Below, in pieces: positions 31,411 through 61,539 of a stretch of 64,000 bases of DNA. The translations under genes were made by a program, and so were the position numbers. Location of the stretch: positions 19,146,754 through 19,210,753 of the forward strand of contig OZ316896.1 in the NCBI GenBank assembly GCA_973895155.1, read 5' to 3'. This stretch comes from Marsupella aquatica (lineage: Eukaryota; Plantae; Marchantiophyta). How positions within the stretch are numbered: the first letter of the stretch is position 1; every line of letters starts with the position of its first letter. The notes below the pieces were generated by a model. It saw only the letters and a list, made by a program, of their open reading frames with translations. It ran no database searches and was not told the DNA's origin.

Positions 31411-31717
31411 CCCTTGTGATTTTAAATTTATTTTGCTTTTTGCTGTCTTTTCTATTGTTTGTGTGTTTTTTATGACTCCAGATGGCTAGCGAGATCGCTA
31501 GCCAAAAGAGGAGTCCCCAAAATAGATGTTATCAAGCAGTTTATTGTTAGTGAGGCAATTGCATATAGAAAAATTAGGGGTCATGTGAGGAAACTTTTTG
31601 CTCATGCGAGGAAAATTTCTACTGTTTCCTCAAACAGTAGAAATGATCGCAAAGACAAAGCACCCCAATGAAGGGGAGGAAAAGAGGGGAAACGGCCCTT
31701 CTTTTCTTGATTAGTCA

Positions 31718-32700
31718 CAAGCTCAATACCCTTGCCTTGCACAAAAGATGTCATGACGCCCAAGATGTCATTAAGAGATAAAATGTCATGTCACCCACGA
31801 TGTCATTAAGAAAAAAGATATCATGTCACGATGTGGTTGAGACAAAAGATGTCACTATGCCCGAGATATCATTAAGAAAAAAGATGCATGTGTTAAATAT
31901 AAAATTATTATTAAGTACAAAATGATCCATAAGTAAAGTGATATTGTTAGTCATATATGTTGTCAAGTCTCTGTTGCACAAAACATGTTTGCATAAATAC
32001 ATCGTTGCATTTACAATATTGTCAAATAAAAGATATTGTTAAGTAAAATATGTGGTTGCTCGAATGATGTCATTGCGCAAAAGATATAGTTTACTAAAAG
32101 ATATTGTTCGGTGAAAGATGTCAATGCATCATAGATGACGTTGTACTAAAGATGTAGTTGAAAACGATCATGGTGCAAAATATATCTTTGTTAGAAAGAT
32201 CTTATTGTGTAAAAAACAATTGTCGATTGAAAGATGTCATGACACAAATAGAGGCGACAACCACCACCAAAGTACAACAAAATGAGAATAATTTCTTTAA
32301 TTGTTTTTGTAATTTATATCTTTTAAAGCCTTCCTTCTTTTTCACTTTTTTTTCTTGTCTTTGTCTTTGTCTCATTGATTAAATTGTGCACTATTTTTTG
32401 ATTATGTAAAATATATGTCATTAAACTCCTCTCATGATAGGATGCAGCACTTCCTTTGCATGGATGATAAGGCATGGGGCATAGTATGGCATGGATGGTA
32501 GAGGGAGGAGGATGGGGTAGCATGGATGGTAAAGGGAAGACTTTGTACTTTTCTTGTTTGGAAAAGAGTGTTCACACAAAACATAATTATTTTCTCTTAT
32601 TCCTTTCTCTTTTACAGTTCCCTTTTTTCAATTAAAAAGCCTCTCCAAATTTGAATGACGACCACTTCAAAAAGTGGCGCAACTCTGTATTATAGGAGTT
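31718..32700 (-). mobile_element. Degenerate non-autonomous Helitron, same family as 3541-5029, inverted
   Basis: Minus strand ends catcttttgtgcaaggcaagggtattgagCTTG|T (compare ttttgtgcaacgcacgggtattgagCTAG|T); shares ctcattttgtt.tacttt.gtggt and ttgcgcca...agtggtcg.cattcaaat blocks and the aagatgtc-type repeats. Confidence 0.7.
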
Positions 32701-35254
32701 AATAGTGGCTAAGGTAAGTGTGTAAAGAAAAGATGTTAACAATATTCTTTACATTAAATTGGGCTATTTAGATGTCACTAGATTTAAGGGTGACCATTAG
32801 ATTCTTGCTAGTAGGCCTGTGCATAGTTGGGAAACTGTGTAATAGGGAGTCTCGAAGAAGGGCCATAAGGGAAAAGGTATCATGGGACACCATTTGTGCC
32901 CATAAAACACCTTATGACCAGACTTTGCAGGCCATTGGTGACAGGGGGTATGCATTGACCCATGCCATAAGGGGTGAGTTATGTTGAACTATGACGTCTT
33001 CCTTCATGACGATACAACCATGACTCATACCATGCTCACGTAGTTGACACAATCCATACGTGGTTCACCTCTTCTCCAAGGCTACGTCCACACGAACATA
33101 ACAACTTTACTTCAAGAGTCGTCGAACACACAAGCTCTCTCTCTCTTCCTCAAGTTCCTCCGTTACAATGAGCAAGCACTACATACCAGTGGCTTACACT
33201 AGCCCTGGTATATGCAAGGTCACACACAACTAACCTAACCTCAGCTAAGTCCCTAACCGAGGTTAACCTAATTGCCGTAACCTTTGAGTCACAAGACTAA
33301 GAGCAATCCTTAACAAGTTATGGGTACTTCCACTCAGAGTAATTGCTTTTGGCCCGTCCCCGTCGGACAAGCCCAAGCCTGTTACCTTGACGAGCAATCA
33401 CGATAGAATTTTAATAATACACAATGATTGGCATGTCAATAGTTTCCCTGGATGACGCGATGTTGTGGGGACTTTATGTTGTGATCACACAAATTCAACT
33501 TAGTCTAAGAGTTAAAGTTACGGGTTTGGGTCAGCGGTTGCGGCACTTTCTTGTGGAAGCCAATTTTGGCCTCCCGCTACTTTTCTAATCGTTCCCATAA
33601 CTTAGTCCTTCCGGCCACCTCGTAACTAGTTACGGCCATGCTTTGAGATGTCCTAATGAAACATAGAAAAACTATCAGATTTTTGCCATATTTTGGGCAG
33701 GTGTATCTAGCAGAAATTTGCCACCAAAACAATTGCTGCCTAGTAGTGCAGTAAGTGAGGCACCCGGACAAAACCTTATCGGGGCCCTGAGTGAGGCACT
33801 GGACAAAAGCTTTATTGGCAACCTATGCATGCCCACTTTGAATCAATTCCCCAAAAGGTAGGCGTAAGACTTTGCTTGTGCAAGTGTTTTAACAGGCAAT
33901 CTTTGCCAAATTTTATTTTTATTTGTTTTGCCCTTCCATTAATGATCAGACTAATATTAAGCCCAAATGGACAGAGGGGTTTGTTCTGCCCATCCCATGG
34001 AGCGCCTAAAGTCATCACCCTATCTACACCTAGGAAAAAAGGTGTCCTGCTGGTGGAAAGACACTTCACCGTTGCTAGGGACTCAAATACATTTTTTCAG
34101 GCACAACTACGTTTTTGGTAAAGTTGTGCATTTATGGATAAATCTTGTTTATTTTTGTTCAATCTTAAAGTTTTCAATATGTTCTTTGATGTCCATTCTA
34201 TTACAATTCTTTATGTTTACAATTTTTGAGACAGTTTGCTCCATTCATGACAAATGCAAAAATGGTAAAATTTATACCAGACTCTTTGCTTTTCAGAAGG
34301 ATATATGCTGTGAGTAGTTTGGACATGAGGGACAAATGAACACTTTTGGGAGCATGCCTTAGTTTTGTGAAGGGCAAGTTTGGACATGGGGAGTGACTTA
34401 CCATTGGGTGAAGTAATTAAAACTGGCTGCAATTTTTAAGAATCTACTTAAAGGTGATATCAGTCAGAACCATAAAAGATACTACTGTAGTGTATCTAAC
34501 ATAGATGTTATGTGCCAGTCCATCTAAGTTTCACAGAAAAACTCTAGGTCCATCTGGGTTTTATTTGGCTGATAGACCTACCCACCTTTTTGTGCCCAAA
34601 GTTTGCAAAACTGTCTTTAAAACAAAGCTATCCACAAACTGGCTTAATTAGGCCGACGCATGGCTTTTTTGTGACAAAAAGTGCATGAAATGAAGAAAAC
34701 TTTCTTGGCAATCAATTCCACGCAAATTTGTTTTTTCAAACAAGCAGCAACATAAGAAAGTGATCAGTTTATGAATAAGTGTAATTGCTTTGAGACTTTG
34801 TCCAATGCCCACTAAAATTCCCCAACCAAAATGTTTTCTCATTTATTTGTCTTTGATGCAAGCTCCTTTGGGAAAGTGACCACGACTTGGCTACTATTTC
34901 AACATGATTTGGCAAAGCGGGCGAGATAGCCCCCACATACCTCAAGACCCAAAGGCACCCCAGACCAGGTAAGCTCAGGAGCATGTAGTCATCTTCAAGA
35001 GCTTTCCAACCCATCCAAGAAGTTCTCCAACAGACTTACTGTTTGTCGTGACACATAGAGTCGGTAGCATAAGATATCGAGACATGTATCATATGCATCC
35101 AAGTAACACAACAAAATAGAAAACCAGAAAGATGATACATGGTTGTCCATTAACACCAAGATGAAGAAATGTTGGGGCATGAAAGTAAACCCCTGTACCC
35201 CCCAGACTTGAGCATGGAAATGGTCAACGAGCTGAGGATATATGAGCTTGGTGA

Positions 35255-35747
35255 AGGAGAACAAGAAGGACAGAACCATAGCCCTTCCGGAACTTGTGGA
35301 AGCTCAGGTCGCAAACAAAAGAGATGGTAAGTAACCACCGTTGCAATGGTCACACAACAACATCTGGTCAGCATCATCAATCCTGTGACACACCTTATAG
35401 GGATAATCCACCGGAGGATCCAAGTAGAAGTCACAATGGTAGGGTCCAAGTTAGGCAAGTGACAAGGGGCACAATTCTCAGCATGATCTTTGAGGGTACG
35501 GCCATCTGCTCCCTGTAACTCCAACACACATGAAGGATAGATGCACTTAACCCTGAGAATAATGCGACTGGTGGAGGTATCCAATGTGTCACTAGGCTGG
35601 CGCTGAAGGTAAACAAAATCACCCACATCAAACTGCCTCACCTTGGGCCTGAAGCTCCCTCCCCGTGTGTGCGCATATCTGAGTGTATCACGATGTTGGG
35701 CAATTGCTAGGTTGTCCATAGCCATAGGCATGACTCTACGAAACAAG
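35255..35747 (-). pseudogene. Gypsy integrase C-terminal region plus C-terminal PHD finger (frameshifted)
   Basis: LFRRVMPMAMDNLAIAQHRDTLRY..FDVGDFVYL.., then DYP(Y)[44 protein letters not shown] (C4HC3 PHD; first Cys reads TAT; a 4-bp duplication at 35327-35334 shifts the frame). Confidence 0.85.
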
Positions 35748-35975
35748 CACTAGAAGAAACCGAGCCATTCTGAGACCCAGCCTTACATGACTTGTGTGAG
35801 ACCTTTGAAAATAAGTGACTCCAAGGTTTAGGGTGTCATCTTTGTTACATCTTCTTGACTCACTTTTGGTGAAGTTCTGGGAAGTCATGTATTTAACTAT
35901 TGGGAAAGTTGCTTCTGTAACTGAGTTAAGGCAAGTATATTGAAGTTATATAAGTGACCATGACTTACATGATTT
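35748..35975. repeat. CACTA left TIR and subterminal repeats (core GTGACT/AGTCAT)
   Basis: catgacttg, aagtgactcc, ttgactcac, aagtcatg, aagtgaccatgacttac. Confidence 0.75.
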
Positions 35976-38802
35976 CCTTGCCCAATACATATGATTTTGG
36001 ATCCATCATATTAATCACATTATGTCATGCAATTATATATAGTTACCTCCCTTTGCTTTAACCATCACTGAGTTGCTCTTTATTGTTCCCCTGTAAGAAA
36101 GTATACATGACATTTTTACCCTAATTGAAGTTTAGGTAAGTAGGGCAAATTTGTGATTCTAGCTAGACAAGAACCAACCAAATTTAAGTTAACATTCATG
36201 TACACGGCCGCAACTGAGTTCAAAAAGGTGTGAAAATTTGTGCCATGCCCCCAAAAATAATGATGCACCCTAAACCCTAATACTCTACATACATAGTTAC
36301 CTTAAAAAAGTCACCACAACCAATTAGTGGTACTTGTCACATACTGCTCACACACATATTAAAACTCACTTCATCCACTAACTCATTTTAAAAATTTGCT
36401 CTGCATATATACCCCATAATTAGCCAATATCAAATGGAACCCCCTTCATATGGGAATATTGAAGGGCCCAATTTAGGACCTCTTTTTCCTTAAGTGCACA
36501 ATGCAATGCCGTTGCATCAATTTCTCTATCGGAAGCCCTCTTCCAATGAACCATGTTGCGCAATTGCAAGTTGATACAATTGGCAATAGCTTTTGCCCTA
36601 AACTTTTGACTGCCAAAAGCTTTTGTGGAGGGACTTGGAGAAAGAGAGAGTGCGCCCGCAAAGTGAGAGTCTTGTTGTTTCATGAGCGGGAAAGTTTTCA
36701 CATCTTGTCAAAGCAGTCGTCTAGTGTGCGCTTGCTTGGGTGAATCCTATCGCGCAACTTGCTATCGAGTTGCATCCCTTGCACACAGAGAGGTGAAGTG
36801 TTGTTGTTTGGCAAGCGGGAAGGTGCCACTCTCACATTATGAATTCCATCCTAGGTTTACCCGAGTGAATCCTATTGACCTACGACCTTCAAAGAAGTGT
36901 AGTGACAACTTTTGGTGTGCTCGCTTGCCCACTGTGGCCTATTCACGAGGAGTGGTCTTGTGCGGATTGGTGAGGTGGAGGTGGAGCAGTACTGTGGACA
37001 GGGGGCTCTGAAGGTTTATAAGGTGCATGCGGTGGGGGTCATCCAGGACATCATCATCGAACAAAGGGACGACGACGATTGTGAGTATGAGTTTGCATTG
37101 TTCTCTACTGGGTTCCGAATTGAGTTTTGAGCTGTGGTGGCTTAACAATGGTTGCGGGTGGGACCTCCCAGGGGCAAGGGGGCGGCGCCGAACGTTCCTA
37201 GGAGGATGCAAAATAGACTTGTGCTACATTAGGATCCACATCTGTGTCTCTGCCTTGCCTTATTGATGGGAATCTACAGTGCATTTGGATTGGGAAGGTG
37301 AGAGCTGTCTATAGAATGCGTCGAAGCTGATTTTTGTTCAGATTTGGTCTTATGGAGAAGTTGATTCTTCTCTGCATAATGCTGCCTTGCTGAGCTGCAT
37401 TGGGCTATGATGCGGGAGGTATTCATCAAACGGCAAGCTTTTGGCTGCAGCTACCAAGTGTAAGTTTAGGGAGTTGAGAGCGGAAGCTGCCAATTTGGAG
37501 TTGCGAGTGTTCAAATTTGAGTGAGTTGGGGTAGTGAACGTTGAGCATCAACCTGCAGGGAGGTGCGACAGAAGTCTACTTCTGTGGCAGAGTGAGCTGA
37601 GCAAGTGCAAACTACGGGAGTGGAGCATCGTGGCTGCAACATTGACCGGGACTTTTTTTGCGTTGGGCACTGTGAGTAAGGCAGTCTACGGAGGCGCGAA
37701 AGAGTCGCGAGGAGTCGAGTTCAGCTACGGCAGTATTCACTTCAGTTGTCTCAATGTGGTTGGCGTGAGCTGCAGGTGAGCTTAGCTGTGTGCACATTTC
37801 ATGTAAGTCAGGTGGTCGGTGTTTTAGGCATTGCGGAACTTGATTGACCACCCCATGGCTAAGGTTTAAGGTGCGGACTACAACAAATATGTGTTGTTGC
37901 TGAAAGTGTTGGTGGTGAGCGACAACTGGTATTGTTTCAGCTAAAGGGAGCACATTGGAGCTTGTGTATCCATGACCTGCGACCGATTGCGGCTGCCTGC
38001 TGTTACAATTGCCGAATCAATCACGCACCCAATCTTGCGGGCAGACACAACTTTGCGGGAGTGTTGAAGGTTTAGGGTGAGCAACAGCGGAGAGCTCATT
38101 GCTTGGTGGCAGGGTTGAAGGTGGATGATCGGGCTGCAAGGCCAACCGGGGACTTGTTTTGCATTGAGCGATTGCTGCGGATTGCTACGCAGCTTCAGTT
38201 AGGGCGGCTTGGTGCTACATCGGCACAGGTAAGGCTGCAATCCCCTATCGACGCGGACTCACCTCGTGACTGCAAGTATAGTTGTCTAGGTGATGTATGC
38301 ATTGCGTGTTTAGGGTCTAGGTGACATCGCTGCTAAGCAAAATTTGTGAGCTACCTAGGTCCATTGCCGAATGTTGCTTCCTTTAAATTACCTGGTGCCT
38401 GCTGTTACAATCGCCTGCTCAATCATGCACCCAATCGCCTGGAGCTCATTTGCCTGGAGCTTCATCCGTCAGATTCAAACTGTTATTGCTGCTTTGCCCT
38501 TTTGCCATGGGTTGCCGGCCTACCGGATGCTATCAACAGATTAAGAACAAGTCATATCCTAAGTCCCGGTGTTGCAGTGATGTCCCCGACCCTAAGATGC
38601 TTTCCAAACTCATCTTTCTTGTTTCCTGTTGCTGCTGATGTATGTATGTTCTCCCCTATTTTTGCTTACAGATTGGTCTCTCCACACTTCTTGCTTGACA
38701 TGATTGTTTTGCTCCTCCCTGTATCAGAACATGCCTTGTGCCCGGCGGTGGGGTGGGGGGGTGAACAGACGACCTTAAGGTTCACTACATTTCTAGGAAC
38801 TG

Positions 38803-38963
38803 TGCATCTTTCAGCTGATTTTAGCCGCAAGTTCCCTTGCTTTCCCCTGTTTTTGCTAAGATCCCTCCCACTAATCACATGCATCTTTCAGCTGATTTTA
38901 GCCGCAAGTTCCCTTGCTTTCCCCTGCTTTTGCTAAGATCCCTCCCCACTAATGACATGCATC
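38803..38963. repeat. Tandem duplication, 77-bp period x2, inside the CACTA
   Basis: tgcatctttcagctgattttagccgcaagttcccttgctttcccctg.ttttgctaagatccctccc starts at 38803 and at 38880. Confidence 0.92.
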
Positions 38964-40153
38964 CTTTACTTTTCTCGGTGGCCCGTGCGCCTGCCTTCCT
39001 ACTTTCGTTCTTATGGACTCTCCTTAGGTTTTCATTCACCTGGTTTTGGACTTTTTGCTCCGGTGGAATCTGTCTTGACAACTTGTGTTTGTTCTAATTG
39101 TTAATATCTCAAGAGGGTCATCAACTAAGCTGAAAGGAGTCAAAGCTAACTACAAGCTAGCAAATACAGAGAATGCTCCCAAGTCGAGTCAGGAGGAAGT
39201 TACTAAAACTAGACCTTCACAACTCTCGAAACTAGAAAGTGAAATTCAGCGTGAGACACGTAGCTGAAGGCCACAAGGATAACTATATGGCCACGCTGTC
39301 CCCCATTCAAGTCCAAAGTCCTCTTCAGATTGTCTGAACTCCTATTGAATGTATTGAATAATTATTTCATCACAGAAATTTTCAGAACAAACACGGAAGC
39401 ACCAGGGGGCTGAGGATTAGGTATTGAGGCTGAAGACATTGAGGTCATAAACTAGGTGTGGTTCGGGTGACAATGTTAGCAACTGATGCTTCTTCAGGGG
39501 AACTTCCCATGTGCAGTTTATCCACACATGATTGACTTTGGTTCTTGCTGTTTTTCTTTTGGTGTACTCTTGAGTTTGGTGTCACTCTATCCTTTCCTGT
39601 AGCCTCGAAATAGGAACACACCTGCTTAGTGGTCCCCAATCGCCCAATGATTTATAATGACTGTGTCTAGGTGATGTATGCATTGCGTGTTCATTCCAGA
39701 AGAATGAATATGTACACTTTGCACAAACCTGGACAGATCGATTTTGAATGTTATTTATCTGAGTTTCTGTTTGTGAGCTCTGACTTGGAGCCTTAACATT
39801 TGTGTTTCTGTGGGGCTGAGCAGAGTTTGTTCAGTCTAGAAGCTGCTGTACTGAAGTGATCAGCCTCCGGCTTGGAGGTGAATCTTCAATTTTTTGTGGA
39901 TCCGAGTGACTTCTGTCCAGCTGAGTTTTGCTTTGTCGGGACGATTGTGTTTGGCTAAGATGCTAGATTGTGGCTTGTCTTCTTGCTTCCAGCTTGTGTA
40001 TTTTCAATTAATAGAAGTTGGGAACGAAGTGATAATTGAATTTCCTTATATTAAGCATCTTCACCTAGAAACTCAATACATAAACTCCAGGATTCCCTCG
40101 GGACATAAAATGAGCCAAATTGTCTCAAAATTGGGAACCTGCACCCGCACTAC

Positions 40154-40496
40154 TCAAACAATTGTGTTGGGCTTGGTGGCCTTGTAAGTCTTCTTTAGCT
40201 TTCGCAATGGAGGTTGAATCTTGCAGTACGTCAAGGGGAACTTGATCTTTGAATCATGGAACTGCTTGGTACTTTCTCGCTTGCACAGAGAGACAGGGAC
40301 TGTCGTAGTCTTCATGATCTGGATGCAAGGGAACCGAACTCTATGACAAGAAGCCATCTCATCATACATCTGCTCTGCAGCTCCGTTTCTTGTGGTATCA
40401 CAATATTCCTTGTACATGTTGTGATAACCTGTACGACTCTGATACGTGGACCCAGATACCGAAGTTCTTAATTGTGGTGGGCTTCTTTTTGAAGAT
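40154..40496 (-). pseudogene. RPL18A: Captured terminal exon of 60S ribosomal protein L18a (eL20), frameshifted, inside the CACTA
   Basis: cag|[16 protein letters not shown] / [74 protein letters not shown] matches the plant L18a C-terminal half; begins at an AG acceptor; earlier exons not seen. Confidence 0.92.
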
Positions 40497-41504
40497 CTGG
40501 TAGACACATTATTCAGCATTTGCTAACTTCGAAACTAGAAGGGTAACACATTAAACAACAGAGAAACTCATAACATCCTCCTTTGGTCCTTCAGAGTCTG
40601 TACTTTGATTCTGAAGTTTGACTGAGTTTTTGTTTACTAAAAGAATGTGACTGTGTAAGAGTTCCGTTTGGCAGTGGATTGGTTGAAGCACTTCATGCTA
40701 GTGTGTTGTCCACAGCTCTTCAACCAGCTTTCGTCTTCCTTGTCTTTCACCACTTACGATGACATCAATTCAGCTAAGACCATAGAAGGTTCCAAAGCAT
40801 CTAACTTGTAAAATCGCATTTTGTTACATCAAGGACTAAGGTGTTGGGTGCCAAAGGAGACAGCACAACAAACACGCTGAAAAGACTTCAGGACTGGGTT
40901 CAACAAGGTAGTGAAGGTGCTTAGAGCCATAGTAAGTATGCATTCTGTATCTTTCTCTATTGATGTGAGCTTGTGCATAATGGGAGTTGTAGTTGGCAAG
41001 AGTTCCAAATATGAATAGATCCAGAAGTATGTGATCATGTACTTGCTCTATAAAGTTCTGAAGATATAAGCATTTTCTGTTAGACCAGGCAACTTGGGAG
41101 TTGGTAAGTGTCACCTGCATCTGAGGGGCTACACCGGGGCATCAGTGGAGGTTCACTTGCACAACACGACAACCAGTGAATTTTCTCTCTGCTGCAACCT
41201 GCAAGGTGAGACTTTCGGTCTTTCTGGATGAAAAAACAGGAGTTTAATATGATTGATATACATGTCCGTCGAGAATATGGGTTTATCACCAAGCTCTTTG
41301 TCTTAGGAAACTCATAAACTCAGAATCAAATATGTACTATGCACGTTTCATGCTATGTGTATACTATGACCTGTAGTTGGAACCAAGACAATGAGTGGGA
41401 ACTGATTAGTTTAGGTGGTTGCTGTTGGCGAGGCAAGTCGACCTCCTGCTCACCTTGCTCATCAAAGGACGTGAACAGAGGACATCACAACGAAAGCAAC
41501 ACTT

Positions 41505-41954
41505 ATGGTGAGGACCCGCAACGCTGAACATGTGCGACTTGCACGCAAGGCAGAGATGTTGCGCCTTGAGTATGTCAGACTTGGGATCCTTCCAGCCCAG
41601 TCTGCATGGTACTTTGAGTACCCTGTTGTTTCCAGGAACAACTATAGCCGGCCTCTACCTGCTTCAGTACCCTTCCCGACATCCTTGGTATTTGTGTCTC
41701 TTGTACATGACCCGCCACAAATTAGGTGCCAAGGGTGTGTACACAGTTGCCAATATGACTGTCCTGCCTGTAGGGCTTCTGGCCCAGAATTGGATGACCG
41801 TTCTCTTGGATGCCGATTTTTGCACAGAGCACAATGTATCATCTGGAACCACTCGCCATCCTGCAGTGTGCCTGGTGATGTCACTTGTCCTGCCCTCCCA
41901 GACCCCACCACCGGTGACTTTGGTGTCTACACATGTTTGGATCACATGCTCTAG
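41505..41954 (+). CDS. CACTA-borne 149-aa Cys/His-rich ORF, possible divergent PHD/RING-type zinc finger
   Basis: Intact ATG-to-stop ORF; ligand-like pattern CQGC..CPAC..CRFLHRAQC..YTCLDH; co-oriented with the transposase. Confidence 0.5.
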   Translation: MVRTRNAEHVRLARKAEMLRLEYVRLGILPAQSAWYFEYPVVSRNNYSRPLPASVPFPTSLVFVSLVHDPPQIRCQGCVHSCQYDCPACRASGPELDDRSLGCRFLHRAQCIIWNHSPSCSVPGDVTCPALPDPTTGDFGVYTCLDHML

Positions 41955-42569
41955 AGGACCACTTGTCACACCGCATGCACAGACCAGATACCATTGACCT
42001 ATAGCTTAACACTCTGACTTCAACACAGAGGATATTTACTTAAAATTTTGATGTATGAGCAATTTTGGGTCCAGGGTTTAGGGTCAACAGTACATAACTT
42101 ATATCCTATTATGCCTGCACTAAGCAAAATATCCTAATTTAAGAGGCTAGAAAACTCGCATAAAAGTCTCTATTGAAAGACTGCTTTCATGACTGCTTTA
42201 ACCTGGTGAACATTGCAACGTTGAATGAATTAATGGGCCATGTGATAATATGCAAAATGATTGATGCCTCACTTATTTGTCTCAGCCACTATCATAACCT
42301 ATTTAGGATGTATAAATTTCAACCCTTATGACACTGCTTCATACCAATCCTCTTTGAAGAATGCCTGTTTTACATGTGACGACTATTGTATGTGATTCAA
42401 ATGCATGAAATGTTGTTGCAGATCTCCTTTGGTGAATCATAGCCACAATTAAAATTGAGGTGTTGGTGGAGAAATTGTATTAGGGGATCAGTTTTGTGTG
42501 TGGGCTCAACATACCAAAAGTATGTGTGCTCTGCATCCTTGTGTGGCCATTCCAATTCATTGCAGTAGC

Positions 42570-42712
42570 AAATGCCTTTGTACCTTAAATGCTAAATATA
42601 TTTTACTTTCTGTGCAGTCTGCTAAATTGTAGAGTCTATCTAAATGCCTTTGTACCTTAAATGCTAAATATATATTACTTTCTATGCAGTCTGCTAAATT
42701 GTAGAGTCTATC
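42570..42712. repeat. Tandem duplication, 72-bp period x2, just upstream of the PHD ORF
   Basis: aaatgcctttgtaccttaaatgctaaatata..ttactttct.tgcagtctgctaaattgtagagtctatct starts at 42570 and at 42642. Confidence 0.92.
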
Positions 42713-42724
42713 TCATGCGCAGGC

Positions 42725-43405
42725 ATGGCACGGCCTAAAATTCAAGCCAAAAAGCGTGTGACAGAGGTGAGAAACACAGGTGTACTTGGGGCAGATGCTA
42801 CTAACTTCTCTGCAAGTCAGATTTTCCAGAAGGCAGCTCATTGTTGTGCCATTTGTGACGATGGTGGGGGCCTGGTCATTTGTGAGGGCCCTTGCATGAG
42901 GCATTTCCACCTCAACCCGGAGTCTGACCTTGCTGCAGAAAACAACTGTCCAGGGGTGGGCCTCCCGTCAACACACCAGGGAGACTGGATGTGCACTTAT
43001 TGTTTGGAGAAGCAGGCTAAGTGTGCACAGTGTGGGAAGTTGGGGTCCTATGAGGGCTCTGTTGATGCTGCAGCAAATGTTAGGAAATGTCCAGACCGTT
43101 TTTGTGTGAGATTTTTCTGTTTTGAGTGTTTGCCTGCTCATGCCACAGCTTGCCCACTTCATAGGTGCAAGGCATGTGGTGAGCATGATGATGACTACTG
43201 GACTGACATAGTCCACTGTGCTAGGTGTCCCACTATGTGGCACTATCATTGCCTAAAAGATCATCAAGCAGAGGGTTAGGCTTGTGACAGAGAAATCTAT
43301 GATCACTCTGCACATGGTGTTGATCGATGGATATTTTATTGTCATCGCCATGCCATTGATCCTACCTCGCGCACTCCTGTGAGAGATCACATATCTTGGC
43401 TGTGA
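42725..43405 (+). pseudogene. CACTA-borne stand-alone EDM2/NSD-type composite PHD-finger module (226 codons, one in-frame TAG at 43277-43279)
   Basis: CAICDDGGGLVICEGPCMRHFH..WMCTYC..KCAQCGKLGS..KCPDRFCVRFF..CPLHRCKAC..HCARCPTMWHYHCL; the frame continues past TAG to WIFYCHRHAIDPTSRTPVRDHISWL, resembling the EDM2 motif IYC..HEID....TPVRDH. Confidence 0.85.
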
Positions 43406-43997
43406 AGCTGAACATTGTACATGCACAGTGCACCTGATGTGGATGTACTATTTTTTGAGATTGCAGAGATTCCAATTTTGAAAAGGAGTTGGGTAGGCGA
43501 GTTTATATAGGCAGCACTTATCTTGTGCTCTGGCGTCAGTGGCTGGGTACATGCCTATACAAACTTATCCTTACAAGCCTTCTTGGAAGTATTTAGGCTG
43601 AGTGGTCATTTTCATAAACACTTTCATCACACTGCTAAATTAAAATAAGACTTCTAAGTTGTAAGCGTATAAATTATCAGGCATGCAATTAATCAAATTG
43701 CCCTATAAGTTTGTCATTGAATGTATCCTCCTTTACAACAAAATATGTATGTGCCATGACAAGTTGGTTGCACTTCATTTCACCACGGATATGGATTTTG
43801 TAGTATATATTCAAACAATGTCCTGCATCCGTGCAGGTGCCTAGTACGTATTGTTCACATATCCCTTGTACCTATCAAAATCGGACCTGAGCACCAGTGG
43901 GCCAGATCAACTCAAAAAGCAGGAATTTTGTTGTCCTTGTATTGTCAGGTGAACCCATTCTTCCAAAATTCACTGTCATCACGTAGGGTGTGTGTAC

Positions 43998-44870
43998 ATG
44001 GAGCCTGGTAAACGTAGAAAGTGTGACCACCCAGCAGTGTTTACAGGGGTCAGAGCGATTTTGGTCCATGGCCAGCATGGGTTGACCAAAGTGCATTGGC
44101 CAACTGTACAGAAACGATTCTCTGAGCTCCATGGCACTGTAGTTCAGGACATCACTCCAGAGACTACACATGTTGTTGCAGGGACATGGCTATCAGTGAT
44201 AAAGAAGTGGTCATGGTCCTACATGAATTCTGCAATTACTAAGCAAGGCCTAAAAGTAGTTGAGGCCTCTTGGATCACAGATTCCATAGCACATAAGATT
44301 GTACAGGATACTGAGCAATATGAGTTGTGGGAGGATGAAGAAGCTACTGCATCAGCTTGGGCTGAACAAGAAGTCTGGGAAGCAAAGGCACGGCTTGCTG
44401 ATCTCCAATATGGACCTGTACTCAACAAAGGACAGAGCTCTACAAGGCTGAAGAGTATGTTGGCTGAGGAGACGAAGCAACCAACCCCCATTCTGAAAGG
44501 GCTGAGCATGGTATTTGTGGAGGCGGGAATTGGAGAGGTTAAGTGCAAAGTGTACAAGTCCACAGTGCTTGACCTAGGTGGGACAGTGGAGGAGAATATA
44601 ACAGAGGACACCACTCATGTCATTACTAAGTCATATCCCAAAGCCTGCCGCAAGTTTGGGAAGGGAGACATTCGCTTTTATGTCATGTCCCATAATGTGT
44701 TTGTGGTTTCATATGCTTGGCTTGTGGAATCAGTAGCAGCTGGGAAGCGTCAAAACCCAATGGACTATGATCTTTTTGAGGCCTGGCCACGGAAGGGTCA
44801 GGATCCTTACAGAGAGGACTATGAGACAACAAGTGAGGAATGGGTCATTAGCGATTCTGAATCAGAGTGA
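43998..44870 (+). CDS. CACTA-borne tandem-BRCT domain protein (290 aa, intact, intronless)
   Basis: Two BRCT-pattern repeats: FTGVRAIL..HGTVVQDITPETTHVV..VVEASWITDSI..EQYEL and LKGLSMVFVEAGIG..LGGTVEENITEDTTHVI..VVSYAWLVESV..MDYDL; N-terminal basic PGKRRK (NLS-like). Confidence 0.85.
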   Translation: MEPGKRRKCDHPAVFTGVRAILVHGQHGLTKVHWPTVQKRFSELHGTVVQDITPETTHVVAGTWLSVIKKWSWSYMNSAITKQGLKVVEASWITDSIAHKIVQDTEQYELWEDEEATASAWAEQEVWEAKARLADLQYGPVLNKGQSSTRLKSMLAEETKQPTPILKGLSMVFVEAGIGEVKCKVYKSTVLDLGGTVEENITEDTTHVITKSYPKACRKFGKGDIRFYVMSHNVFVVSYAWLVESVAAGKRQNPMDYDLFEAWPRKGQDPYREDYETTSEEWVISDSESE

Positions 44871-45303
44871 GGAGTAGTAGCATCAGTTTGGACACAAGTT
44901 TTTTTGTATAATTCAGATCATTGAAATAAATGTGATCTTTGAACTAATGTACCTTGTTATGGTTGGTGGCAGTTGGGCTTATTTTACTGTTGGCGGATTG
45001 TTGTTTCCTGCTGCCTGGGGGTGTCACTGTAAACGTACATGCAGAGGCGGTACATTTGAGGACAGCGGAGGAGGTGGTGACACCCTCCAACATTTAGAAA
45101 TTTTGTGTCATTCACTTGACAATAGGTACACTACTTGCGAACCTGTTTTTTTCTTTTGGGGTGGTTTAGGGTTTGTGAGAATTTAGTACACGTTATGTTA
45201 ACTCTTTTGGCAGATACAGTCAGGGATATATGGAACACAAATACCACCATTAGGCATCCTTGTTCACTGCTGTCCATGACTGCAGAGCTCCCAGCCTGTT
45301 ACA

Positions 45304-48300
45304 ATGCACCCTGGTCACCACCCTCCCCAGACCCAGCCCAGGGCACAGGCACTGCCTTTGCATCATCCCACAAGGATATCACGCCATGATAATAAGCTTT
45401 GGCAGCGTGAAAGGTTACGAACCAGACTTTCAGGAGCCAGTAGGATGAGATGTCCTTGTGCAATCTGCCAAGGATCCCGTACCAAGGGTCTGAATGAGGT
45501 TTGGCGGCATATCGCGGTTCATGGAAGAGATCCACGACATCGAGTTTGGAATGATCCTGTAGAGGAAGATTCTTCCGACGAGGAGTGGAGGTTAGAATTT
45601 GATGCTGCCAATGCTGCAAGACGGGCAAGTGAGGTTCTGCCTGGTGCATTTGAAAATGTTGTAGCTGGTCTCTGTGGGTTGTCAGCTCTCCAACGGGATG
45701 GTGCTCAGGCAGCACCACGTGACGAAGGAATTCATGTGGAAGAGATGGTGAGAGACATCTTCCAAGACTTGGATGCATTTCATGATGGGCTGGACAATGA
45801 AGAGGATACGGCTGCAGATGCAAGTGTGCCCCCTGTCGAAGAGCCTCTTGATGAGTTTGAGATAGGGCAGGAAACCCCTGGGCATGATGGGATGTTTGGC
45901 TCTCCCCTGCAAATACAGGAAGGCAGGAAGTCTTTGTACCCCGGTAGCAAATGTTCTAAACTGGGATTTGTCATCATGTTCCTGAACATTTGCGGCAACC
46001 ACAATGTCCCCAACGTTTTGGTTTCTGAGTTGTTGGCATTCTTGCGAACAACTGTGCTACCAGATGGTAATATTTTGCCCAAGAACATGTACGAGGCAAA
46101 AAGATGCATATCTAATCTTGGATTGAACTATGATTCGATCCATGCCTGTCCTGATGGGCATGTTCTTTTCAGAAAGGAGTATAAAGAATCGTTGACATGC
46201 CCTAAGTGTGGGAAGCACAGGTATCGGAACTCAGGAAAGTCTATGGTTCCCGCCAAGGTACTTCGTCATTTTCCACTCATTCCCAGACTTCAGCGGATGT
46301 TCAGAAGCCGTGCCATCTCGGAGATGATGACTTGGGCAACTGACAAGAAAAGTGATGATGGGCTACAACGACATGCTGCAGATTCAAGGCAATGGAAACT
46401 CATAGATGAGATGTATCCCGAATTTGCTGCTGAGCCGAGGAATGTCAGGCTTGGGCTGTCATTGGATGGGGTAAACCCATTTGGAGACAAGAACAACAAA
46501 TTTTCATGCTGGCCTGTAACTATTTTGAATTATAACCTTCCTCCTTGGATGACTACAAAGCGATTTTTTGTTCTGATGGTCCTACTGATACCAGGGCCAG
46601 ACAGTGCTGTATCTGCCAACATAGATGTGTTTCTGGCTCCCCTAGTGGAGGAATTGAGAAAGCTTTGGGAGGAAGGAGTTCTCACATATGATGTCCTACA
46701 GAGGCTTGGGAGGTTAAACCCATTCATCCTTAGAGCCATTGTCATTCTGACTATAGCTGACTACCCAGCCCATGGGATGATATCAGGCCAAACAACAAAA
46801 GGATATTGTGCTTGTACTATCTGTGGGCGCAATGTCACCAGTGAGTACTCCAGAGCCCTGCAAAAAGTGATATACATGGGCCATCGTCGTTTTCTGAAGG
46901 CAGATCACCCTTACAGAGAAAGACAGGCACTGATTGCACACTTTGGCAATGAGATTGAGCAACGTGGACCCCCGGCACGAGTGACCAAAGAGGAGATCAG
47001 GCAGTGGGGAGCACTGAGGGATGACTATATCAAACGAGGGGGCAGGGAAGATGGAGTGAGTGATCCAATAAAGCGATATGGTGTAAAAAGACTGAGCATA
47101 TTGGACTTGGAGCTCAAGTACTGGAGGGTAAGCCTCTTGGAGTTGATGCTAATTGGGATACATGTTTTGGTTCAGAGCATGTGCATTCATTTCGAAGAGA
47201 GAGACTAAACTTGAGGCATTTCCTGACGCTTTTGCATTGCAACGATGCAGGAGTTTGAGCCAAGCAAACATAACATTGATGTTATGCACATTGAAAAGAA
47301 TATTTGTGAGAGTCTACTCAGATTCTTGTGTGGAGAGAAAGACACTGGTTCAGTGAGATTGGATCTTGAACAGAGGGGAATGAAACCCCATCTTTGGTTG
47401 AGGCCACATGCCCACAGAGCTGATGTGCTCTTGAAGTACCAAGTGCCCTATGTTCTGACAGACACAGAGTGGGAACTATTTGTGTAGAGGTTGAGTTCTT
47501 TGAAGGTTCCTTCAAACTATGGCAGTGCTTTCAAGAAGCATATCATGACTAGAAAGCTTGGTAGTATGAAAAGCCATGACTACCATATGTTGATGCAACA
47601 GGTGTTGCCTTTATGCCTGAGGGGCCTGTTGCAGAAGCCTGTTCGTACTGTGATCATGCGACTCAGTGATGTGTTTCGTCGTATTTGTGTGAAGGTTTGG
47701 GATGAAACACACTTCCCACAACTGACAGAAGATGTCGCTCAGGTGCTGTGTGACCTGGAGATTTATTTTCCTCCCGCATTTTTTGATGTCATGACCCACC
47801 TACTTGTCCATGTTGTGGAAGAGCTACACCAATTTGGGCCTGTGAGTGCTCGTTGGTTGTACCCTTTGGAACGGTACATGAAGCTACTCAAAGGTCACGT
47901 GAGAACATATTACAAACCTGAAGCAAGCATGGCTAAAGGTTACATCAAGGATGAGACTCTGGGATTTCTGACCGAATACATAGCACAATATGAGCATGTG
48001 AAGACCAGGGTGTGGAATTCTGATGAGGAGGAAGGGGTGGTAGGTGAAGTACTGGAAGGGGCTGCAACCACAAAGAACCTGACCATATCTATGAGAGACT
48101 TGGCACATGACTTTGTATTGCACAACACTGTGGTGATGGAACCCTGGATACAGTGAGTGCATACATGTGCTATAATCCAGTTCATGAGCTTAAATATTGT
48201 GTTCGTGTGGTTTTCTCCTTCAGCCTGTTCATGTTTACCCAAGCTAATGCTGTGTGGTTGTTCGTTCAGGGAGTATGAGTCATTGAAGGCGGCCCATCCC

Positions 48301-49035
48301 ACTGCAGGAACAACTTTTCCAGGTTTCATGGAGTGGATCAGAGTGGCAATTAGAGAGCATCACGAGACCCACCCAGACATGGATGCAGATGTTTACCTAC
48401 TGTCTAATGCCCCTAGCCTGAAAGTGAAGACTTACAAACGGATGAGAGCATATGGGAATCACTTCCGAGTGAAGGATGGTGACAGTGCCTACAGGGTGAC
48501 GAATGATTGCGGGCTCATCACTGTATTTGAGCAACAGAGCCACAATCACGACAGGGCCTGGATGGAGATGGGATATGTGGGAGAATTAGTTGACATATGG
48601 GCTCTGGACTATGGGGCGGTGTCTAGTCCTGTGATTCTTATGAAAGGTTCATGGGTGCGGCAGGATTGGCTTGGTAACAGGGCTACCATGAAGAGAGACA
48701 ACGACGGTTTCTTGCTGGCCAATTTCAGAGGGAAATTGCCCGAATGGTCTGAGCCATTTGTGTTTCCTAGTCAGGTGGAGCAAGCTTTCTTCCTGGATGT
48801 GGAAGACTCCCCAGGTTGGCGTGTAGTGTGTCATAAACAGGCCAGGCAACGCCGGATGGAAGGATCAAACCTTGAGTTTCATTTACACTCTCATAGTGCC
48901 TTTGATCGTCGGCGTTCAGACCAAGTGCCTGTAGTTCATGATAGCGGGGACTTCATTCCTGTGACAAGGGTAGATGCATTTGCTGAAGGAGGCGAATTCA
49001 GAGATGTAGATGCCAACAGTGTGCCTGTGCCATGA
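45304..49035 (+). pseudogene. CACTA TnpD-like transposase (transposase-associated, Transposase_21, DUF4218 and DUF4216-type regions), 3 exons, one in-frame stop
   Basis: RCPCAIC; IHACPDGHVLFR..CPKCG..KVLRHFPLIPRLQRMF; RNVRLGLSLDGVNPF; NYNLPPW; IDVMHIEKN; MKSHDYH; FPPAFFDVMTHL; RWLYPLER; EPFVFPSQVEQAFF. Exons 45304-47127, 47251-48152, 48270-49035; TAG at 47485-47487. Confidence 0.93.
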
Positions 49036-49191
49036 GTAATGTGAATTGTTTGCATAGACATTAGTGAGGGGAAGGATGTGTAATAAAGTAATTCTGAAGC
49101 AACACAGATGTATGGATGGATGCCTGGTGATTGTGGTTGCATTGTGTTATACGGGGTGACCATAGATGACATGTTTTTGTGGTCCAGTAGG

Positions 49192-52100
49192 ATGGAACAG
49201 AGTGACACAGAGATGTGTGAGTATGAAAGGAAAGCTATGGAACAACGAGCATACGTGAAAGCCAAAATCGCAGAACTGGATCTGGAAAAGGATGTGGCTG
49301 AATTGTAAGGGAACGATTCTCAACTACACCCCTCCGCTGAGTTTGTGTGACATGAATAGTTCAATGTGGCACTGAAATTGTGACTGTATTCTCATATTGG
49401 AATGTCGCAGAGCCACAGCATTTTCAAAGAAACAAAAGGAGTACGCAAGAAGGGTGACCAGCACTATCTCTGGGCCTGTGCGTCGGAGTGACAGGTTGAG
49501 CAAGAAGGTCGTACCTACAATGGCAGAATGTGGAGATGACATTGATGCTGCACAGGTGGGTGCAGACACTAGACAAGAAGATGCAGATGATGAGTATTTT
49601 CCAAAGGAAATGGATGAGGATGGGGGTTATGAAGATGAATACATTGCAGAGCAGCCCCAAAAGAAACATGTAAGTAGTTTTCCCAACAAGGTTTTGAGTT
49701 AAAAACTCTTGTTTAGAGGTTTCATATGTTCAGTACTACACATATGTACCTTGCTTAGTTCCTGACATTGTAGTTGGTGATGTGATGCAGCGTCCTGCCA
49801 GTTCTGTTTTGCCTTCGAAGCCTGTGCATGCACCATACCAGCAGGGGGGGCTGACCTCTGATCAAGGTTGGCGAGGTGGTAGTAGTGGTAGATCCCAGGC
49901 TGGTGCCCAATACTATGGCAGGGGGCAAGCTCTAGGTTATGCCCGTGGTAGAGGCAGAGCAGGTCCAAACCCACAATCTCGTGGGTATGGACGTCCACCT
50001 CAACCATGGGGATGTGAGTATATATCTATATGCCAGTTCTTTGTGAAGGCATGGCACTCCTGAATTTCAGACTGCATATCAATTTTTGACATTGTTTGGG
50101 ATGTATTGGATTCAGACAACATGAAATTCTGTCCACCTGCCATTGCATGCAGATTCTGCCCAACCTGATTGGGCAAATGCTAGTAATGATCAGTTCCAAT
50201 GTCCACAAGGACAGACATGGGTTGAACCAGGTTGGGAGGATGGTGGTGGGTCGTGGAATGAACAAGGTTGGGAAGGTGGTGAAGGTAATTGGCAGGGATA
50301 TCAAAATTCAGTACCTACAAACGCTGGAAGAGGAGCAGGTAATGTCTGATCTTGTCAGCAATGGAAGAACTCATTATATGTGGAGTCCATTCACGTGGGG
50401 GGGACTCTGCACATGTATAATGATAGAAAATGTATGTGTGCAGGTTGGACAGTCGAACCATCGACTCAAGTATTCACTAATGCCCCTATGCAGATGCAGC
50501 ACGGAAGGGGGACAGGTATATCGGTGAATGTTCAGTTGTTTTCCTACAGTTTGTACTTAGTTTTCAGTACATATGTTTGCACACACATACCTAGAAAGTG
50601 ACATCATCCGGCCCCTGTACTAGGCTGGACAGGTGGTCCAGGGTCGCAACAATTTCAGAGTGCAGTCCCTGCACAGGCATCTACAGGCAGAGCTACAGGT
50701 ATGTATGTTTGAAGAATTTTTCTTGAAGTGAAGCATTGAATGTTGCCGTCATCCATTCTGCTATATGTAGTTCTCAAGCATGAATGGCATTGTATTTTCC
50801 CAGGTGGCTTCAGAACCCCAGGTAGGGTGAATGAAGGGGTGGCCAATACAACGCCCAGTACTACCGAGAGCAGTGCACGAGGGGAGGTGACAAAGAAAGG
50901 GAACGTAAAGTTGAATGAGAGACAATGGGTGGATGCTGAGTGTCCTCGCAAGAACCGATGGCATGCTGATTTGAAAGCTGAAGTATTGCGTTGGTTAGAT
51001 GTGAGTGTTATTAATTTTAAAAAACAGCATCCAAAAGATTGGAAGACTGTATGTGAAAATGTTGCTGCCAAATGGAATTATGTGGGCAGTGATGATGGCG
51101 TGGACATAGGTTGCCTAGAGAGTACAGCAGGTAAAATTATCAAGCAAGAGAGGTGGAGAATGCATAAGGCTTGGAAGGAAGGTGGGGAGAAGCCAGATAT
51201 GCCTCCACCAGCCAGTTGTGATGATAAAGTGTGGGCAAGGTTAGTAGCTTATTTTGTAACAGATGCTTCAAAAAAGAAGAGTTCACAGATGACCGAGGCC
51301 AGGTTGAGTGTTCAGAACCCTAATCTGACAGGAAGGACCGGCATTGCACCGACAGCTAAACGTTTGGTAAGAATGAATGGCCTAGCTATGTAATTTATGC
51401 TACACTATGTACTATTTTTTAGTGTAAACCCATACATGTAAACTTTGTTTTTTAGTGTACGTTCCCTGAATATTGATCGATAACTTGTGTTTGCCATGCA
51501 TGTGCAGAAAGCCCAATTGGGGCAAAGCCCTTCAAAAGAAGAGTTGAGGGCTGAAATTGTGAACACCCGGGCTCAAGAGGGTGCATCTGAATCCTCCAAG
51601 CATGTAAGTTATATGAGTTCTGATTGGTAATTGAATGACCTGCGTTGAATTTCAGGTGTACACTGTATATAACATTGATTGTGCATATATTGCCCAACAT
51701 TTCATATGGAGTGATTGAACCTATACCCCTGTGTCATGTAGGGAGGTGGATCTTCACTTACAGAGATAAGTGGTCGTTTGAAGGCTGTCGAAACATGTCT
51801 TCCAGAGATCAATGAACGTTTGAATTCATTGACTGACTTGTTCCATGTGAACTTCAAGACATTAATGGAAGCTGTTGTGTCGGTGAGAGATAAAATTGAT
51901 TCCAATTCTGCAGGAGTTCCACCATCACCACTTGAGGTGGCAAAGTCGATGCACTCTTCTGGCATGCCAACGACATGTAGGCTTGAAGGTAAGGCCTTTA
52001 CAACTGTGTGGGATATGATTATTAAATGTATAGTTTGAATTGACATTGTTTGTTGAATGTGTTATTTTCAGTAACATATATTGTGGTTGTTGTGTCCATA

Positions 52101-52898
52101 GAGAATAAGACAGGTGCTACAGAGAAGAAGTATGAGAACCTGGCAAATACTCGCTGTAATTTAGAGGCAACAAAGTTGCAGTCTGTACAAGCAACTTGTT
52201 TGACAGAGGGCAGTCAACCATGTTTGGATGAGGATGACATTGGCAAGGGAGTGGATGATATCAATGTTGGGGCAAATGAGGATATCAGCAAGCATGACAA
52301 TGATACCATTGAGCCAGATTCATGCTATGTAGATCTTGACTCCATTGCAGAGATAAATGATTTGCAGAATGTATCATTCTCAATGACAGGTGTGCCTCTT
52401 GTTGAGATAAATCCAACCAAAGAGTTAGTTGGTATGACACTCCCAGGTGATGAACCTGCTACTGTGACAGTCCTAACAGAGGAACCTACTGAGCCTAGCT
52501 TCACTATTGTGAAGAGAGGAAGCATGCGCACACGAAGCAAGTCTGCTGGTGGGAGCAGAGCCACGTCAAAGGTTTCATACAAACCTCCAAGAACAGTGCT
52601 GGCAGAAAGATCTAAGGTGGAAGTGGGGAAAGCACCTAATGCTGAGGGACAAAGTGGCTTGTTAGCTGTTGATGAGAGTGGAACACGAGTAGGATTTGCC
52701 AGAGTGCAGGTTGGTTCCACAACGTTCCATGGCAAGAGGATTCCCCCAGGTTATTCAGTAGTGTTAGTCACATTACTAGTGAAACCTAAAGCTGTCCTTC
52801 CCATTCCAAACACAAATGATGATCCTCCTCAAAAGACACTTGGAGATGCTGCAGGTTCTTTGGTATTATGGCCAAGCAAGTTCATAGAGGATCCATAA
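49192..52898 (+). CDS. CACTA TnpA-like (ORF2) multi-exon gene; exon structure only partly resolved
   Basis: N-terminal CEYERKAMEQRAYVKAKIAELDL; Ptta/En/Spm-like WARLVAYFVTDASKKKS..ARLSVQNPNLTGRTG; C-terminal FHGKRIPPGYSVVLV..LPIP..TLGDAAGSLVLWP typical of plant CACTA ORF2; several GT-AG flanked segments. Confidence 0.75.
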
Positions 52899-53394
52899 CA
52901 ATGTCATGCCATTATTTGTTTGTAGTGTGAGTCATGTTATGTAGATTTTAGATGTCAAGAAGCAGTACAAGAATCATGTCCTCTTGGAGATTCATAGTAT
53001 CATGCATGTGCTTTCAGTTATCTCATCCTACAGTCATCAATTATGAGTTCCTGTTTTGTCTAAATTACATTGATCACATTGTAAACTATTCCATTGGAAT
53101 TCAAATGATCTTCATTTTTTAGCAAGATTGTGATTGTGTTTAATTCTTATGAATGTTTTATGTAGGATTTGCTTATATGATGTTTTGTTTCATGTGGATG
53201 TCATTCATGCTATGTTCATTTCTTGTATTCAATGTGTTATATTTCTAAAGTTAGAACATCAGGTTTCTATGTATTGTAATGTCGAGTGCTCTCTCTTCTT
53301 ATGAACTGTCCCTCTGTGTTCATTAGTCATGGTTATAACTTGCATGTGAACCTTATTAGTTATAAACATGAGTATATAGAGTCCCAAATGGTTC

Positions 53395-53753
53395 TGTTGT
53401 GTGACGCGGGCCAGGGTCTCCATTGGTCTCTCCTGTGACACTAAATAGTCACACGCTAGTCGTTGTTGAATGCGGGTAAGTCATGTATGTGACTTACGAT
53501 GTGACTCGCTGAAGTCATATTGCAGTCACGTCGAAACAAGGCTAGACTCCACAATAAAGTCACAGATCAGTCACAAATGGGTATCAAGCAAGTTGCAAAG
53601 CCCAGTATCAATAGTGACTTCCATTTTTTGGTCTCAACTTTTGCAACTCCAAGGGTCACAGCGTGGGTCAAGTCACGTTGAGTCACAATGAAGTCACATG
53701 AGCCAAAATGAGTCATATATTGCGGTCTCAGTTCACCTCGGATTCTTCTAGTG
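53395..53753. repeat. CACTA right subterminal repeat array (core AGTCAC/GTGACT, both orientations) and right TIR
   Basis: More than 10 copies, e.g. tagtcacac, aagtcatg, tgtgactta, cagtcacg, aagtcacag, gagtcacaa, aagtcacat. Confidence 0.85.
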
Positions 53754-53756
53754 AAG

Positions 53757-54650
53757 GCAGCCCTCTCTGATATGATAGTAGACTGGTCAGGTTTCCGTTG
53801 AGTCCAAGTCCACCACCTGAAGCATTTGAGAAGCAATAGAAGATGGAGGAACTGGATGCCGACCAAAAAGTAGAAAATAAGGAGAGAAGTTGGACAAGGA
53901 GGCATGGTTGGACATGCGGTACCCCATGGCAATGTAAGGCAGTGCCAAGTCCCAATCTTTCTTGTTCTTGGTGAGGCATATTTTCCGCAATCCTTGTTTG
54001 CAGGTCTGTACCATCCGCTCAACTAGACCATCCGCTTGAGGATGATCCCTTGAAGTTCTACGATGATCAATGAGTGCATGGTCAAGTAGGTCCTGAAATT
54101 CTCCTCTGAATTTAGAGCCCTGGTCAGTGAGGCACTCTGCACAAGCCCCAAACCTGCTAAGCACTTGCTGGAGAAAAGCTTGGCTAGTGCTATGTGAACT
54201 CTTATCAGGCAAGGCAACCAATTCAATCCACTTAGAAAAGTGCTCAATCATGATCATTATATAGAGGTTACCCCTGGATGTCAAAGGTAATTCTCCAGCA
54301 AAATCACAAGATCAGCGGTAAAACAATCCCTGAATAGGGAGTGGATGAAGTATAGGCTGTCGAGAGGAGAATGAGGTTCTTACTCTGTCACACTGTTCAC
54401 ACCTAGCTATGATATCCCGAATCTGAGCATGCATCCCCTTCCAATGGTAGTGAGGAGCCATCAAACTATAAGTACGCTTGATTCCAAAATGCCCAAGTTC
54501 AGAATGTACTTTTCTGACCAAGTCAGCCCTATCAGCAATTGGTGGAACCACTCTCTCCCCTTGTGGAAAACAGCAGACTAGGTGATCTCCCTTCCACATG
54601 TAACGCTTAGACCATTGTTGTATCTGATCCCTTTGAGTAGTGGTCATGCT
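53757..54650 (-). pseudogene. Gypsy integrase, HHCC zinc finger and DDE core (disrupted)
   Basis: VHSELGHFGIKRTY..HYHWKGM..ARCEQC; SCDFAGELPLTSRGNLYIMIMIEHFSKW; CLTDQGSKF; HPQADGLVERMVQ; FSPYFLLFGRHP. Confidence 0.93.
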
Positions 54651-54668
54651 TGGTGGGTACTGCTTGTG

Positions 54669-56044: not shown

Positions 56045-56189
56045 ATTACAGAGTACCTCTCCCCCCCAACACTAGGAGTGAAATGTAGAGTGGAGAGGAT
56101 GGGTAAATGTACTTCATTAGGGTGCCAGGTAAGAACTTCATTAAGGCGAGAGGCTGGGTCACCCATAGTAGGAACAGTATGCATCTGGA

Positions 56190-61530: not shown

Positions 61531-61539
61531 TGTCCAAGT

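Follow-up and report, generated by a model that had tools for sequence, protein, structure and literature searches.

A stand-alone EDM2/NSD-type PHD gene within a CACTA element of the liverwort Marsupella aquatica

The question raised by this locus is whether a gene for a composite PHD module, located within a CACTA transposon, is host DNA carried along by the element or belongs to the element lineage as an accessory gene, and what its product might do there. EDM2, to which the module had been likened, is described as a protein with PHD repeats together with acidic, methyltransferase-like and proline-rich regions, which acts on H3K9me2 chromatin jointly with ASI1 and AIPP1 (PMC7529245, PMC7472560, PMC3632883). 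A similarity between EDM2 and NSD1 is described in PMC3776765. The window, i.e., the whole stretch of DNA analysed, has a length of 64,000 nucleotides and corresponds to positions 19,146,754 to 19,210,753 of contig OZ316896.1 (assembly GCA_973895155.1).

The CACTA element and its genes

A complete CACTA element of about 18 kb, located at 35748-53753, encloses the PHD ORF. When all CACT[AG] end pairs were scanned, 35748/53753 was the only strong inverted pair in the window. Terminal inverted repeats (TIRs), a 3-bp duplication, TnpD and a TnpA-like gene are all present and place the element in CACTA/En-Spm; the features are listed in Table 1. GTCAC/GTGAC repeats occur 13 times in the last 700 bases, compared with 2.2 per kb inside the element. 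The transposase matches Transposase_21 (E 2e-70), DUF4218 (E 2e-28), DUF4216 and Transpos_assoc, has a probable intron at 47128-47250 and is interrupted in this copy by an in-frame TAG at 47485-47487. CACTA TIRs, the 3-bp target-site duplication, subterminal repeats and the Tnp2 and Transposase_24 genes are common to this element and the En/Spm elements with TnpD and TnpA, from which it differs in two additional conserved host-derived genes, the PHD module and a twin BRCT, both upstream of the transposase.

Table 1. Features of the CACTA element (positions in the window).
Feature	Position	Strand	Remarks
Left target-site duplication	35745..35747	.	AAG, 3 bp
Left TIR	35748..35777	+	starts CACTA; matches right end at 24/30 bases
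Ribosomal protein L18a fragment	40157..40500	-	intron-free, frameshifted; Pfam PF01775, E 3e-18
Cys-rich ORF	41505..41954	+	149 codons, starts MVRTR; no Pfam match at E 0.1
Stand-alone EDM2/NSD-type three-finger PHD gene	42725..43405	+	226 codons
Premature TAG of this copy	43277..43279	+	Tyr codon in other copies
Stand-alone twin-BRCT gene	43998..44870	+	intact, 290 aa; Pfam BRCT, E 2.6e-13, two stretches
TnpD/Tnp2 transposase	45280..49035	+	several exons; Pfam matches
TnpA/TNP1-like exons	50740..52898	+	Transposase_24, E 1e-4, under Pfam cut-off
Right subterminal GTCAC/GTGAC repeats	53401..53697	.	13 in last 700 bases
Right TIR	53724..53753	-	ends TAGTG; paired with left TIR
Right target-site duplication	53754..53756	.	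same AAG as left

The element is inserted in a Ty3/gypsy retrotransposon (33000-35747 and 53754-62500, minus strand), the integrase of which it splits. A second large element was also observed in the window, with inverted ends about 29 kb apart (about 3200-5030 and 31700-32700), 52-nt arms at 3228-3279 and 32643-32694, and arrays of 17/35-nt subterminal repeats.

The PHD ORF starts with ATG at 42725, finishes with TGA at 43405 and contains one in-frame TAG, at codon 185; its C-terminus is WIFYCHRHAIDPTSRTPVRDHISWL. The layout consists of a basic N-terminus, PHD1 (residues ~41-93) and a PHDv-C5HCH-like part (~97-209), and the Pfam matches follow in the order PHD-1st_NSD, PHD_NSD and PHDvar_NSD, each under the curated cut-off. 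All 24 predicted zinc ligands are present, the final one being a His; the C-terminal His of the EDM2/NSD-type module is described in PMC3776765. Six CxxC motifs were counted in the ORF; 2000 codon shuffles had 2.0 on average and 7 at most. Alignment with a Phragmites protein named EDM2-like gave 63 identities in 210 positions (E 4e-26), and matches in the cluster atlas were generic (PHD_NSD, 0.93; BRCT, <=0.88). An earlier note on this DNA had described an intronless, ATG-initiated ORF with three Cys/His clusters inside the TIRs and a module of the EDM2 type. The ORF and its position are borne out by the TIR scan, the Pfam matches and the ligands, and the type, better worded as EDM2/NSD, is confirmed by the Pfam order, the EDM2-like alignment and the NSD profile matches given below. 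As regards the coding part, the description as intronless is correct; an AG 2 nt 5' of the ATG makes a 5' intron or an upstream exon possible.

Just 5' of the PHD start there is a 72-nt tandem duplication (42570-42713, 97% identical), near which several indels of other copies lie. For the PHD and BRCT genes the observed/expected ratio of CpG is 0.23-0.25, versus 0.38-0.43 for the transposase; such low values are what long CG methylation would lead one to expect.

The twin-BRCT gene, which the earlier note on the PHD ORF does not mention, has full-length intact homologues in two of 1261 candidates (60% and 54%; lengths 294 and 295 aa), and on these proteins it appears as a second conserved accessory gene beside the PHD gene. 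A search for its donor gave weak, tied matches to Rtt107, BRCA1 and Lig4, and the protein may resemble the BRCT of polymerase lambda. A fusion of the PHD and BRCT genes was rejected for this copy on the basis of separate stops, separate starts and separate intact homologues. No text joining CACTA, BRCT and transposon was found among the main texts of a mostly open-access literature. The L18a fragment's N-terminal portion sits in another frame; in contrast to the conserved PHD and BRCT genes, this frameshifted fragment reads as passive cargo. The Cys-rich ORF, upstream of the PHD gene and on the same strand, is a possible third accessory gene.

Relatives, predicted structure and origin

In a protein search with the read-through sequence, five of 117 candidates were intact stand-alone relatives of 217-245 aa (37-81% identical). 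No fused form of the family was found among 1963 longer candidates in a weak search, in which three matched, all of them EDM2-type at 30-31%. When 1.84 billion representatives were searched with a profile, 573 matches were obtained. Of the best 150, the first six are short proteins of the family, and the EDM2-type proteins come after them; 15 family members were recognised by eye among the 150, and approximately 12 short family proteins appear, again by eye, truncated or frameshifted.

Ten full or nearly full family members were compared against P0002, the intact relative with 81% identity. All 24 ligands are kept in six of them, 23 in three and 22 in one; two ligands are lost in P0005. Each of the ten ends 1-9 residues past the last Trp. 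In seven distant members, 163 of the 168 ligands are kept, versus 405 of the 1075 other residues (38%). The earlier note had remarked on kept ligands and diverged spacers in this ORF; in the family, the pattern of kept ligands at the protein level points to purifying selection. At that level the PHD gene is intact and conserved across diverged copies, as an accessory gene would be, and the family is an old one of stand-alone proteins of ~220 aa.

P0002 was modelled using AlphaFold with 68 sequences, which gave a pLDDT of 88 and a pTM of 0.82 with a disordered N-terminus; with only six sequences the fold reached a pLDDT of 48. Residues 97-209 of the model matched the PHDv-C5HCH of NSD2 (9gbf), which ranked first (Z 5.4, rmsd 2.6, 75 aligned), at a Z value that falls in the range the structure-search tool calls common. 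Single PHD fingers matched residues 34-98 in the wide structure search, and Foldseek returned PZP and NSD PHD5-C5HCH domains (2naa, E 1e-3). The family profile matched NSD2 and NSD3 (E 1e-12 to 1e-11), with AIRE next. The predicted structure is thus that of a PHD with a PHDv-C5HCH, a shared fold that proves no function. With NSD1/2/3 the protein has in common the profile match (E 1e-12 to NSD2 651-794) and the fold match to 9gbf; it differs from them in having neither SET nor PWWP and in its plant lineage.

Readers of unmodified H3K4 are described as using acidic residues, and K4me3 readers an aromatic cage (PMC10124903). PHD1 of the family retains D45, G47-G48, L50 and D54, as in EDM2. The acidic K4 patch is presumably to be expected near the first Cys of PHD1. 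By this sequence proxy the family lacks the acidic residues of a canonical unmodified-H3K4 reader: none is found among the eight residues before the first Cys in nine of nine family rows, versus 2-4 in 38 of 38 host-type rows. With this patch absent, H3 binding may be altered or lost, and the specificity of the family may differ from that of EDM2.

The origin of the family was addressed with a tree of 31 rows (10 from the family, 5 from paralogues, 14 from full EDM2 proteins and 2 as outgroup), from which P0071, P0148, P0155 and other long or partial sequences were excluded. The model was LG+G4, with no mixture model, and the branches are long, those of the family included. The family forms a single clade (support 100/99) and joins five methyltransferase-less EDM2-like paralogues at 96/95; four of these five are named from liverworts (Calypogeia, Riccia, Marchantia). 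In a quick tree made before, the family was likewise supported (93), with no such support for its sister group. The five paralogues (P0013, P0016, P0018, P0024 and P0028) are themselves a clade-like set.

The best host-type identities are 27-36%. Two shared derived traits also mark the family: ligand 132 is Cys in 12 of 12 family rows, where 37 of 38 host-type rows have His, and the spacer has 7 residues in 12 of 12 family rows versus 10-36 in the host-type rows. The liverwort paralogues (MARPO_0005s0286, Calypogeia CAM6087769 and Riccia R1sor_003797) share with the family a Trp at 172 and an end shortly after the module; they differ in their length (620-770 aa, with a long N-terminus) and in retaining the His ligand, the long spacer and the acidic patch. 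The atypical PHD module of EDM2 and EDM2-like proteins has the same three parts, identically ordered, and the same C..H and PxxDH ending, at 30-36% identity. Compared with EDM2, the family consists of the module alone, inside a transposon, with the His-to-Cys swap, the 7-residue spacer and the loss of the acidic patch. The regions that would mark an EDM2 orthologue (RFD, methyltransferase-like domain, proline-rich tail) were looked for in the 226-aa protein and none was found.

According to the earlier note, near identity to host EDM2 exons would have spoken against a gene of the element's own, and a phylogeny against EDM2 had been proposed. With a best host-type match of 32-36% the ORF is no near-copy of host EDM2; a recent passive capture of EDM2 exons is rejected, and the phylogeny sets the family apart as a clade of its own, sister to the EDM2-like paralogues.

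Other copies and the premature stop

Contigs from four of the 11 region-containing sequencing runs were aligned over 42300-45400; runs X8-X11, with small shares, were left out. Run X1 may be the source sample, and X3 and X5 belong, as judged by the run codes, to other organisms and studies. At position 43279, runs X1, X3 and X5 have T (Tyr) throughout their depth and X7 has it in 189 of 733; the two closest intact proteins carry Tyr at the same site. The stop had been explained as a mutated TGG or CAG; reads and proteins agree on a Tyr codon, and the TGG/CAG origin is rejected.

Within the PHD ORF fall 12 of the 40 variant rows listed (from 326), of which five are synonymous and seven non-synonymous; at six of these seven listed non-synonymous differences the other copies match the residue of intact P0002. 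The 12 indel rows listed (from 25) all lie outside the PHD and BRCT ORFs. In X1, contigs with 0-3 differences and a depth of 1641-2740 run in tiles across the PHD and BRCT genes, with the spacer and the DNA ahead of the transposase, and pieces from X3 at a depth of 2608-2884 tile the region in part, with rarer variants at 13-48. No single contig from X1, X3, X5 or X7 covers the span from the PHD gene to the transposase. The tiling fits a multi-copy family bearing both the PHD and the BRCT gene, with depth uncalibrated as copy number. In X7 the depth is 879-10312 in the PHD bins and 0-86 in the flanking bins, which weakly suggests that diverged relatives are abundant. Gaps or skips within the PHD ORF occur in a few contigs of low depth. 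From the TAG of the PHD gene and the stop of the transposase, this copy is decaying or carries assembly errors, and its relatives are intact; the intact close copies in the reads, together with the intact relatives, answer the concern that the ORF might be restricted to this copy.

Possible role and alternative explanations

The feature is real, and host-derived accessory genes of transposons are already known as a kind. Plant DNA transposons are described as keeping KAONASHI/Ulp1 and VANC, the former a domain of host origin that elements have conserved for a long time (PMC13317346); TET/JBP genes on fungal DNA transposons are described in PMC12730594, and TnpA is reported as an anti-silencer of Spm (10.64898/2026.08.24.746577). 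Like VANC and KAONASHI (Ulp1) of the VANDAL Mutator elements, the PHD gene would serve a plant DNA transposon as an accessory gene. VANC belongs to another superfamily and recognises DNA motifs; no sequence link to the PHD family and no Pfam match to the VANC domain in the PHD protein were found, and the analogy is conceptual. In the mostly open-access literature searched, no CACTA element with an EDM2-type module was found described, although supplementary bryophyte transposon libraries could list this element, and the main text of an atlas of Arabidopsis transposon products has no mention of PHD (PMC13547354).

The PHD ORF is probably an accessory gene that the element lineage has kept under selection. 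Granted this, a docking mechanism is somewhat favoured, and the whole reading, in which a cut-down EDM2-type module serves the element family as its own chromatin-docking adaptor, has about an even chance of being correct. The module would have been captured once, in ancient times, from a methyltransferase-less EDM2-like paralogue, with cDNA as a possible route in view of the intron-free coding part, and would then have been retained under selection. The small protein would enter the nucleus via its basic N-terminus, bind six zinc ions and grip histone H3 tails or a chromatin protein, recruiting the TnpA/TnpD machinery to chromatin in a chosen state, either for activation or for the choice of targets; the adjacent twin-BRCT protein could tie the same process to host DNA repair. 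The family would thus be a histone reader with shifted specificity which docks the proteins of the element. As the protein comprises only the module and a basic N-terminus, the read-through job of EDM2 cannot be assumed for it, and the lack of the other EDM2 domains makes an adaptor or a decoy likelier than an EDM2-like read-through factor. Only tentatively can this be widened to a chromatin-and-repair toolkit of an old CACTA lineage in early-diverging land plants, in which the re-tuned free reader and the element's own twin-BRCT protein would allow activation of the element in chosen chromatin or its insertion there, or would compete with the host EDM2 pathway.

By analogy with EDM2, the mini-module might instead act as an anti-silencing decoy or mimic, which would occupy the heterochromatic marks of EDM2 and shield the element or compete with EDM2 and other readers, with element transcripts as the outcome. 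The module is the same as that of EDM2, which is described as binding H3K9me2 chromatin, promoting full-length transcripts and affecting >2,000 transposon loci (PMC7529245), and a reader in marked chromatin would fit the report that TnpA of Spm activates elements while H3K9me stays (10.64898/2026.08.24.746577). Such a decoy is nevertheless rather unlikely, given that the RFD, methyltransferase-like and proline-rich regions are all absent, no DNA-recognition domain is evident that could give specificity for the family, the N-terminus of PHD1 is remodelled, and a TnpA-like gene, which in this superfamily is the known anti-silencer, is already present in the element. The partner of the module could also be a protein, a host enzyme or a product of the element, rather than histone tails. 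The missing acidic patch would agree with this, as would the conserved family-specific surface changes and the absence of Trp at what is usually the aromatic-cage position. PHD1-3 of NSD2 is described as binding PSMD14, and PHD5-C5HCH of NSD1 as dispensable for H3 binding; the same source has NSD clusters binding H3K18ac as well as PSMD14 (PMC12870971). A purely non-histone adaptor is held to be quite unlikely, however, as PHD1 retains the residues shared with EDM2 together with an aromatic residue at 88, and AIRE PHD1, the closest solved relative by sequence, is an H3 reader.

The last alternative is passive cargo, i.e., a host gene picked up by one element lineage in the same way as L18a, with the conservation coming from host copies. 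Capture by Pack-CACTA elements is described in PMC13317346, the present element does carry the L18a fragment, and this copy is dead. Moreover, no DNA context was found for the distant members: a metagenome-contig scan with a 4-sequence alignment gave one locus from 229 pattern matches, an unrelated repeat-PHD protein (25%), a viral-contig scan with a 4-sequence alignment gave family loci in 0 of 43, and for the 17 family clusters looked up there was no NCBI or UniRef genome record. This last result (0 of 17) also argues against host copies as the source of the conservation, and many members look decayed, as transposon copies do. Other close copies of the PHD gene are intact and abundant, whereas L18a is frameshifted, and a second conserved gene adjoins it in the orientation of the transposase; passive cargo is accordingly regarded as quite improbable.

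The plant transposon counter-defence proteins VANC and TnpA find their elements by DNA sequence. If the docking reading holds, a transposon-owned reader of histone marks derived from the EDM2 lineage would offer another route, via chromatin state, and could help to explain the insertion bias of CACTA elements or their activity inside heterochromatin. The family also provides a natural minimal EDM2 module (~190 folded residues in a confident model) with defined changes, which eases testing how the EDM2 module reads combined marks. Among mobile elements, chromatin-reader modules (PHD or chromodomain) serve chromovirus integrases, some Ty3/gypsy integrases and RAG2, mostly as single domains fused to the integrase or a partner; the PHD family differs from these in being a free three-finger protein. 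A weak PHD match was observed at the end of the Ty3/gypsy integrase interrupted by the CACTA element (Pfam E 0.012).
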